Below, piece by piece: positions 35,583-37,114 of a stretch of 64,000 bases of DNA; within the stretch, counting starts at the first letter, position 1; the number at the start of each line of letters is the position of its first letter. This DNA comes from Ascidiella aspersa. Taxonomy: Eukaryota. The notes beneath the pieces are model-generated. The model made no database searches. It was not told where the DNA came from and worked only from the letters and a program-made list of their open reading frames with translations. The stretch covers positions 18,228,001 through 18,292,000 of the forward strand of contig OZ004614.1 of assembly GCA_963924565.1 (NCBI GenBank), written 5' to 3'. Both the position numbers and the translations under genes were made by a program.

Positions 35583-37114
35583 ATTTCGGTTTGCTTGTCA
35601 GCTGAACCAAAAAACGGCTCTTTTCAGAGCCACCCATAACTTTGAAAGAGACAAACCCGATCGCTTTGCAAAAGGCTGCATTTTGTGTGTTTTGCTAATC
35701 GTATTGTTGCTCTTTTCATTCCCACATTAGTCAACGAGCGATTGATTTACTGTAAGTTCGAAATAGGTGGAATCGAGCCCAAACTGAGAAAAGTTGGGCC
35801 CGAAAGCTTTCAAGTGCTAAACTATTTTCTAACTAAAATTATATTTCAAAAAAAACAAAACAAAAAAACAATGACGTTCTGGCACTTGTTGAGAAATGTA
35901 GGTAGGGTAGGGTAGGATGGAGAGGCTAGCAGAAACAACGGGTCGGACCGGCGAAGGAGGCAGGCGGTCGGTCGGTGGAAAACGAAAAGAAACAGTTGGT
36001 GTTGTGCGGCCCCGAGACAGCCTTAGCTAGGCGGGCAGCACGTTACGTTAGTCAATTAGGAAAAAACAGAAAAGCTGATTTTGCAATTTGCCAACAGGCA
36101 GGCAGGCAAACACATTATTGAGAATGAGTTTTGTTTCTTTTCGGTGGTTCAGTTTCGGCAGTCTCAGTTAAGGGCTTGTTGCCGGGCTCGAACAGCAGCA
36201 AAAACTGTTCTAAAGGCGGTCCCTTGGCTGACTGCCTGTGCTTAGGCGACAAATCGCAGGGCTTTGATTTTTCGGGTACACGGTCTCGGTGTGACCCAGC
36301 CTCGAAAGCAATATCACCGGGTAGTCTTGGGAGGCCCAAATCGATCGCGCGTTGGCGTTTTGGCAACTGAACACCTCGAAAAGGGCAGTCGTTCAGCTAA
36401 AGCCGAACGTTTCGAGCGTTGCTGACGACGGTGTGTCCTACTCAGCGACTTGATAGTCGACGGGTGCGCGCTACAGGACCTCAGGCGCTGGTAGACAAAA
36501 TTTGAAGCGCCACCTCGGTCGGGCAGCCAGGCAAGCGAGCCTCTTGCTAAAATCAAAAGCACACCAAAGTGCAAGCAGTCGGCAGCAAACCTTTTCGGCA
36601 TTTCACCGATTTCGCTTTGGTACGCAAACCACGTACAAATGGCCAGCGTGTGCTGTGTCGTCATAAATCCTTTATTGTTTCTTCGTTGTCGAAGAGAAGT
36701 TGATTGAATTAGCAAGCAAATTGCCATTTAGAAGGGATTGTCTATCCCTGGGATTGTCTATCCCTGCGCTTAAGCTTTGCTTGACAACCAGACAACTGAA
36801 CATATTTATACTGTCAGACAGTCGCAAATTACATCTGCGACTTATTTTGCTGCTACCAAGTCGGGTAGTGGAAAGTTAGTTCTGCGTAAAGACGCAACTT
36901 GGATTACTCTCGCCATCTGCAACCAACTTGGAATTGGATTAGCGCGGCTGCGCCATCAACCCTGCAACCAGGTGTGAACTTTCTTATTTCCTGAGTAACA
37001 TTGCTATATAAACTGCCCTACCGGCCAACTGACAAGCCGCCATTTTGTCAAACCTGGCACTTCGGGAAATTTTTTGAAATTCTGCGGGAAATTTAGATTC
37101 CGTACCTCGCCGAA

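Follow-up and report, generated by a model that had tools for sequence, protein, structure and literature searches.

Why does a LINE occupy one and the same position in the leader of the histone H1 gene, and why does the leader preceding it differ from that of the unoccupied genes? The questions arise from a window of 64,000 nucleotides (the whole stretch of DNA analyzed here), in which histone units (H1, H4, H3, H2A, and H2B; 4713 bp each) are arranged in tandem from 17162 to the window end; stem-loops of histone genes were identified in the array. The homologs named for H1 come only from distant animals, and the host is presumably a marine animal. Seven H1 sites fall within the window. Four are empty, each with GATTCGTTCGTCGAAGAGAAGT (the host leader) followed by AGGAAA, and have CATAAAT at 17927, 22640, 27353, and 31949. 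The other three, with CATAAAT at 36662, 47345, and 63692, are filled by an element termed here family A, which is preceded in each case by TCTTCGTTGTCGAAGAGAAGT (the variant leader). The count of empty units is uncertain, since the assembly has a gap of 200 N inside the array at 28257-28456 and unit 1 does not differ from unit 2. The sites and copies have the following features:

17927..17984, plus strand: empty H1 site, the reference target (further empty sites at 22640, 27353, and 31949)
36674..36679, plus strand: ATTGTT, identical whether the site is filled or empty; final stretch of homology ahead of the variant and candidate TATA-less start
36680..36700, plus strand: variant leader of copy A1, with a perfect 6-bp inverted repeat (36680-36685 and 36690-36695) and a 4-nt loop
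42610..42679, plus strand: poly(A) tail of A1, 70 nt with one C at position 7, joined to GAAATCG
42692..43294, plus strand: H1 frame downstream of A1, 200 aa, intact, 5.9 kb from the H1 promoter
47363-47383, plus strand: variant leader of copy A2, the same variant as in A1
47363..53340, plus strand: copy A2, with intact ORF1 (47798-49081), intact ORF2 (49210-52638, 1142 aa), and a 49-nt tail with a G at position 9
63710..64000, plus strand: copy A3, of which only the 5' end, again with the variant leader, falls inside the window

Comparison of the filled and empty sites revealed three characteristics of the 5' junction: (i) the variant differs from the host leader by a GA>TC substitution and the loss of one C, (ii) the AGG of the target is missing, and (iii) there is no target-site duplication. 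The element body starts at 36701. The first-pass annotation, made from the letters alone, had reported the lost AGG, the absent duplication, and two substitutions with one deletion, and all of these were seen again at the filled sites. It had also placed the variant in all filled copies, which holds: the variant is present at three of three filled and none of four empty sites. The filled-site structure it described stands for the 5' junction of all three copies, whereas the poly(A)|GAAATCG junction at the 3' end is visible in just two, the third copy leaving the window. Thus, the variant leader beside the element is confirmed as a real feature linked to the element.

The array had further been called almost invariant. 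It consists in fact of two haplotype blocks, haplotype 1 at 17973-36700 and haplotype 2 at 42680-63730, distinguished by 10 shared diagnostic and 4 private differences, and the copies are not thereby independent. Copies A2 and A3 both lie on haplotype 2, and A1 has haplotype 1 on its upstream side, where the final marker is 405 bp away from the leader, and haplotype 2 on its downstream side. The variant is thus found on both spacer haplotypes, which requires either two insertions or one exchange within 405 bp. One haplotype difference comprises three changes within 7 bp of the H3 promoter (19538-19544 versus 44238-44247), beside the H3 CCAAT box and far from any element; hence clustering of the leader changes proves little alone. 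For the same reason the Poisson chance of two events in 21 bp, 0.0016 at a rate of 13 events per 4713 bp, exaggerates the surprise.

To follow the variant beyond the window, 4 of 24 public runs were examined, with small-share rows excluded. In run X1, which may be the source sample, a single unbranched contig (36650-37848, depth 561.7) joins the variant to the element. The element body of X1, in 28 bins, has a lowest depth of 460 and mostly 500-590, level with the junction contig, and the spacer is near 6970; the copies vary inside the element, position 39706 being T or C in about half. The empty allele departs at 36687 with the host extra C in X1, X2, and X4. The annotation had proposed a search for empty units with the variant leader; such units are absent both from the four empty sites of the window and from the empty-site contigs of these three runs. 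Contigs lose rare variants, and depth does not equal copy number, so the runs exclude only a common variant empty allele. Run X2 displays haplotype-2 letters at 36184, 36266, and 36275 at a depth of 103.6 of 103.6, no spacer letters of the other haplotype being among those listed, and its haplotype-2 contig is tied to the empty-site contig through depth rather than within one contig.

These data define four linkage classes: haplotype 1 empty with the host form (the four window sites and run X4), haplotype 2 empty with the host extra C (run X2), haplotype 1 filled with the variant (A1), and haplotype 2 filled with the variant (A2 and A3). They support the conclusion that the variant leader tracks the element and not the host haplotype. 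Since haplotype 2 occurs in X2 with a host-form empty site, the variant does not appear to be a haplotype-2 allele. The annotation had suggested following the downstream H1 by the single-nucleotide differences of its 200-aa allele. The 200-aa H1 is an unsafe marker for filled units, because H1 length is polymorphic in the population (199, 200, and 201 aa) and because X2 displays no spacer haplotype other than that of the 200-aa units, and its empty site has the host form. The H1 frames downstream of family A are intact. Runs X2 and X4 contain element pieces at low depth with a few private changes, and no junction contig was present among those listed; one X2 element contig has 33 letters unfitted before 36733. 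No junctions combining the host leader with the element, or with a duplicated tag, were found among the loose ends and contig pieces listed.

The insertion site is the same in all three window copies and in the X1 junction contig, and the copies may share one origin. Comparison of A1 with A2 over 5930 positions gave 8 differences, two of them missing from the X1 contigs, and comparison of their flanks gave 2 in 4704, an excess in the element that is not significant (p 0.2). L1 tails erode with time, and the tails of 70 and 49 nt, interrupted differently (C at 7, G at 9), fit separate recent insertions.

The organization of family A and of its sister element, family B, is given by the following features:

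36701..37114, plus strand: 5' UTR of family A, with two tandem 16-bp hairpins, GCCAT at 36723, 36912, 36952, and 37039, and TATATAAA at 37005
37115..38398, plus strand: ORF1, 427 aa, with a CX2CX4HX4C knuckle, resembling CCHC and ZCCHC3-type RNA-binding clusters
38527..41956, plus strand: ORF2 of A1, with AP endonuclease, reverse transcriptase (RT), and zinc finger; frameshift near 39238
54230..59913, plus strand: family B, intact, with an ORF2 57% identical to that of family A and a 57-nt tail

The first 198 nt of family A fold better than 200 of 200 shuffles (z -3.05), and the two 16-bp tandem units at 36734-36765 are each a perfect hairpin. A Pfam search with ORF1 gave no match. The extra base behind the frameshift in the A1 ORF2 is missing from the X1 contig. 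In ORF2, Pfam recognizes PF03372, PF00078, and PF13966. The best solved-structure match of ORF2 is LINE-1 ORF2p (residues 4-881, E 8e-127), far better than R2 (E 4e-40); on this basis family A is an L1-group LINE (L1 or Tx1) and not an R2 element. It has the organization of that group, namely an ORF2 carrying an AP endonuclease at its N terminus, an RT, and a zinc finger at its C terminus, a separate ORF1, and a poly(A) tail, and it lacks the restriction-like endonuclease, single ORF, and 28S target of R2. We take this architecture to be of the Tx1-clade type, which makes membership of Tx1 likely; no named Tx1 sequences were present among 31 homologs or 80 related loci. Family A shares with human LINE-1 the best structural match, the poly(A) tail, and probable priming on a T run. 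Human LINE-1 differs in its dispersed copies, frequent 5' truncation, target duplications, and ORF1.

The relatives found are distant (24-43%), so sister junctions are not comparable; none of the 80 related loci, drawn from 427 confirmed stretches, adjoins a histone gene. A scan of genome contigs and viral contigs for the junction pattern gave no matches. Rfam on 18 of the 80 loci found U2 and U5 only, in one locus (L012); there a distant relative at 5786-6665 lies just upstream of the U2 and U5 snRNA genes, as with Keno-like elements. Family B, a single copy, entered the DNA some 25 bp ahead of the H4 TATA box and is flanked by an ordinary duplication of 2-4 bp; it provides a contrast to family A, being outside any leader and keeping the duplication. 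The likeness of the 5' ends of A and B was rejected as chance (746 of 2000 shuffles). The occurrence of two sister families in one array suggests a histone-array lineage.

The known targets of site-specific LINEs, as far as the covered parts of PMC8869645 list them, are genes for rRNA, tRNA, snRNA, and spliced leaders, besides microsatellites, telomeres, and other transposons. The Tx1-clade elements Keno (U2 snRNA), Kibi, Koshi, and Tx1L resemble family A in having two ORFs, AP endonuclease with RT, and a preference for multicopy targets, according to the parts consulted of PMC4494074 and PMC8869645; the word "histone" occurs 0 times in the main texts of these two papers, and the target lists of PMC4640811 contain no histone gene in the parts covered. 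The subject of the preprint 10.1101/2025.02.07.636160, from the part seen, is H1 expression and not targeting. No report of a LINE aimed at a histone gene was found in the literature searched, with Repbase, most subscription journals, and supplements outside its scope. In Drosophila, the LTR element 297 is known from the TATA box of an H3 gene.

The annotation had invoked R2 as a precedent. It is indeed established that 5' tags taken from the target can anneal and leave small deletions of fixed size, for R2 in the covered parts of PMC3774820 and for R1A in those of PMC2718515. The R2 elements described there, with ribozyme cleavage upstream (PMC3774820, Eickbush et al. 2013), resemble family A in carrying target sequence on the RNA, in their uniform junctions, and in the propagation of variants: junction variants can enter the RNA and propagate, horseshoe crab R2 has a 21-bp 28S copy with 3 substitutions at its 5' end, and springtail R2 copies have a common 7-bp deletion. 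The substituted R2 tags in these accounts are duplications, whereas family A replaces the host copy. Pairing of the cDNA is the favoured priming route in the part of the review PMC13580325 covered. R2 is also unlike family A in having one ORF, a restriction-like endonuclease, an HDV-like ribozyme, and co-transcription by Pol I.

The R1 endonuclease is of the AP type, and the closer precedent is Drosophila R1A, which has the same kind of endonuclease, rather than R2. Full-length copies of the melanogaster-type R1A have a precise 9-bp deletion, explained by a 28S tag of 6-27 nt on the RNA that anneals upstream (PMC2718515, Stage and Eickbush 2009, as far as covered). R1A resembles family A as a tandem-array LINE with AP endonuclease, a fixed small deletion, no duplication, and uniform 5' junctions, and family A indeed has such a junction. 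R1A differs in its rDNA target, a tag matching the target, the 9-bp deletion, and truncated and rearranged junction classes; family A belongs to the L1 group, targets a protein-coding leader, removes 3 bp, and has a mismatched tag with a perfected hairpin. R1A and R2 often show junction classes like a host leader plus element or a duplicated tag. The joining mechanism is of an already known kind (R2, R1A); no precedent was met in the literature searched for the histone H1 target, the L1-group carrier, or the tag with its perfected hairpin.

Whether family A RNA could carry an H1-derived tag depends on where the H1 transcript starts. In H4, H3, H2A, and H2B, an initiator-like A is predicted 29-31 nt past a TATA-like box, with leaders of 35-42 nt. 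The following features were considered for H1:

36634..36640, plus strand: TACAAAT, candidate weak TATA box with the spacing of the other histone genes; +1 would be the A of TCAT at 36663, 29 nt on
36662..36668, plus strand: CATAAAT, which as a TATA box gives +1 at 36691-36692 and may instead be an initiator
21159..21200, plus strand: H2B leader, alignable to the H1 leader, with a 13/14 match to the start of the variant (at 21163)

The three candidate starts have different consequences. From 36663 (TACAAAT) the RNA would carry 17 nt of homology beyond the changes; from 36674-36677 (TATA-less) it would begin 3-6 nt before the first change; and from 36691-36692 (CATAAAT) every change would lie upstream of the RNA. 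The annotation had taken CATAAAT as the TATA box while proposing promoter capture. The two conflict, since a start downstream of all three changes yields an RNA that could not carry the variant. Alignment of the H1 and H2B leaders (0 of 2000 shuffles as good) places the start of H1 before the first change, at a distance of 3-6 nt, so a start at 36674-36677 is suggested by this alignment together with leader length. The H1 (17945-17984) and H2B (21159-21200) leaders look homologous and share a TTCG-N4/5-CGAA palindrome; four or five of the histone leaders have TCGA between +14 and +19. The promoter-capture model would fit two of the three candidate starts (36663 and 36674-36677), and capture of the H1 promoter by family A is plausible but unproven.

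A public RNA run, of which about 6% was sampled, yielded 27 reads (12 at >=99%, some from a related family) that cover both ORFs of family A, the 3' UTR, and the spacer; none of the 27 falls on the leader, and they form no pile of starts. All first mates map to the minus strand; in a stranded library of the common type this would indicate sense RNA. The family A 5' UTR contains four sense GCCAT motifs (null mean 0.47, p 0.001), and the 3' UTR contains another four (p 0.003); GCCAT resembles YY1 sites. With the TATA at 37005, they make it possible that family A has its own promoter, or one even serving the downstream H1. The 3' UTR of family A has three tandem CGCCATTTT motifs at 42101-42150, which places them 550 bp ahead of the stranded H1, and the motif was also observed in other genomic sequences; these too could possibly act as a promoter for that gene.

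The variant leader reads TCTTCG-TTGT-CGAAGA, a perfect 6-bp inverted repeat, and the corresponding repeat of the host version is 4 bp. The GA>TC change equals the reverse complement of the downstream arm of the palindrome. To call the leader a diverged copy, as the annotation did, is correct in that it differs from the host, but overlooks that the change perfects the palindrome. Among 2968 comparable changes, a stem of at least 6 bp arose in 59 and equally good folding in 11; with the substitution fixed at the first two bases (n = 144), 11 had such a stem and 4 folded as well. Changes that extend imperfect inverted repeats are generally ascribed to template switching in the part of PMC3820800 covered, and the hairpin-perfecting change, a pattern found post hoc, is suggestive of such a switch. 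A single nearby template for all three changes was sought and rejected: the 8-nt core is absent from the unit and from family A and occurs once, reversed, in family B. Hence loss of the C needs a second step. The first 14 nt of the variant are 13/14 identical to the H2B leader, likewise found post hoc (null 28/2968 or 7/144); transfer from H2B is a minor alternative, since the local palindrome accounts for the same two bases. Pairing of variant cDNA with the host top strand across the changes is predicted at -24.5 kcal/mol, versus -35.0 for a perfect match, and the tag is predicted to fold as a 5'-terminal hairpin.

We tentatively favor, at somewhat below even confidence, an explanation in which family A inserts at one position of the H1 leader, its RNA starts in the H1 start region and carries the tag, and the tag overwrites the host leader. 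The endonuclease would nick the bottom strand between AGG and AAA, with priming on the poly(A); if the poly(A) paired with target Ts, we infer a nick at TT/C in both families A and B, blurred by the A runs. Transcription of the element would start slightly ahead of the tag, with 36663 or 36674-36677 the likeliest positions, so that the cDNA ends in H1 sequence. This end would anneal to the upstream target, removing AGG, leaving no duplication, and replacing the host leader. The tag would have arisen once, by a fold-back template switch that extended the palindrome from 4 to 6 bp, and would then have been inherited via the RNA. The annotation had likewise proposed an RNA-borne mimic of the H1 leader that overwrites the target; the linkage of variant and element and the known precedents agree with this, whereas its start assignment does not stand as written. 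The explanation is weakened by the start at 36674-36677, which would leave only 3-6 nt of homology beyond the changes, and it fails if CATAAAT is the TATA box. The TATA box and four GCCAT motifs of the 5' UTR itself also count against it, as does the lack, among the junctions listed, of a host leader plus element or a duplicated tag.

A single insertion, multiplied together with the array, would give uniform junctions and flat full-length depth just as well, and the filled units are clustered in the window (three of seven) as against a depth ratio near 8% in X1. One old insertion might have produced both the deletion and the hairpin-perfecting change while its 5' end was joined, and this scar might have spread as DNA, by unequal exchange, gene conversion, or repair of cuts made by the element, with a filled unit as template and its adjoining leader copied too; this is a strong rival that we consider less probable than not. 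Palindrome-perfecting changes are typical of one template switch (PMC3820800, in the part covered), and identical odd junctions of tandem R1s in D. melanogaster were read as one amplified event (PMC2718515, likewise). All copies are apparently full length and have a single kind of junction, A2 lies on the haplotype of A3, the filled units are adjacent, A1 sits exactly on the haplotype border, and the comparison of element and flank divergence gave no significant excess. Spread as DNA requires, on the other hand, an exchange between 36275 and the leader, an interval of 405 bp or about 9% of the unit length, for the variant to reach haplotype 1, and it sits poorly with the long, differently interrupted tails and with the intact ORF2 of A2 and the sense RNA reads, which fit an active family.

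The tag might also be borne on RNA without use of the H1 promoter, the RNA starting near 36680 from an internal promoter or resulting from upstream read-through of the spacer; this seems to us improbable. The GCCAT excess in the 5' UTR and the predicted 5'-terminal hairpin would suit an internal promoter, as would family B, whose position outside any transcribed leader makes internal promoters probable for the lineage; a start at 36680, however, would leave zero homology beyond the changes. Read-through would account for plus-strand spacer RNA at 36027-36480, but these reads, up to 2 deep, represent one or two fragments, and no self-cleaving ribozyme that might trim the RNA was found: an Rfam search of 36500-37200 for an HDV-like ribozyme gave 0 matches to E 10, and a loose descriptor, used with no positive control, gave 0 matches. 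Least credible, and in our view very improbable, is that a rare H1 leader variant of the host came first and that the element inserts only there or met it by chance. Array haplotypes can carry clustered changes, as at 19538-19544, and variant empty units could hide among the rare variants that drop from contigs. Against this, the variant is missing from the four empty window sites and from the empty contigs of X1, X2, and X4, which have the host extra C, and it occurs on both spacer haplotypes only with the element.

For site-specific LINEs, an array of protein-coding genes transcribed by Pol II would be a niche of a new kind. The mismatched tag is a natural marker by which genomes reveal whether enzymes of the L1 type use homology to join the 5' end and overwrite the target; this step is poorly understood and matters for precise gene insertion tools. 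If instead the scar spread as DNA, the locus is an ordinary record of array turnover.

Three of the LINE families in the window have a common feature at the 3' end, found at these positions:

42532..42608, plus strand: 3' end of family A beside the tail, resembling box C/D and closed by a terminal stem of 5 bp
53214-53290, plus strand: further box C/D-like end
59784-59855, plus strand: further box C/D-like end
about 2574-2481, minus strand: further box C/D-like end

These ends (terminal stem, RTGATG, CTGA, stem) lie directly before the poly(A) in three LINE families. A window-wide scan for box C/D gave four matches, all at LINE 3' ends; the non-redundant part amounts to 3, versus 0 in each of 20 shuffles. 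Families A and B are 79% alike in the C/D region versus 64% in ORF2; of the 18 base pairs predicted there, 3 have changed in both partners, and other families in run X1 have the same end (joints to 42533-42558). The motif had no Rfam match, a scan of the 80 related loci gave four matches, none before a tail, and no paper on a box C/D-like LINE end was found in the literature searched. A broader scheme, which we regard as unlikely, would unite these features in a histone-array L1-group lineage, in which family A takes the H1 promoter and with it S-phase expression, employs the self-perfected hairpin of the H1 leader as a heritable tag for 5' joining, overwriting every new target, and has a 3' box C/D kink-turn. 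If it is true, the box C/D kink-turn caps the 3' end of family A RNA and is common to three LINE families in the genome.

Other repeats lie upstream of the array. The LINE at 8423-13261 is without a C/D-like end; a tRNA-like sequence at 8356-8428 (minus strand) overlaps its ORF2 stop codon and lies in its 3' UTR, and a second tRNA-like stretch was observed near 8300-8240. Positions 1-2080 (minus strand) contain 11 degenerate 5S rRNA units, about 80% alike, 400 bp past the 3' end of a broken LINE.
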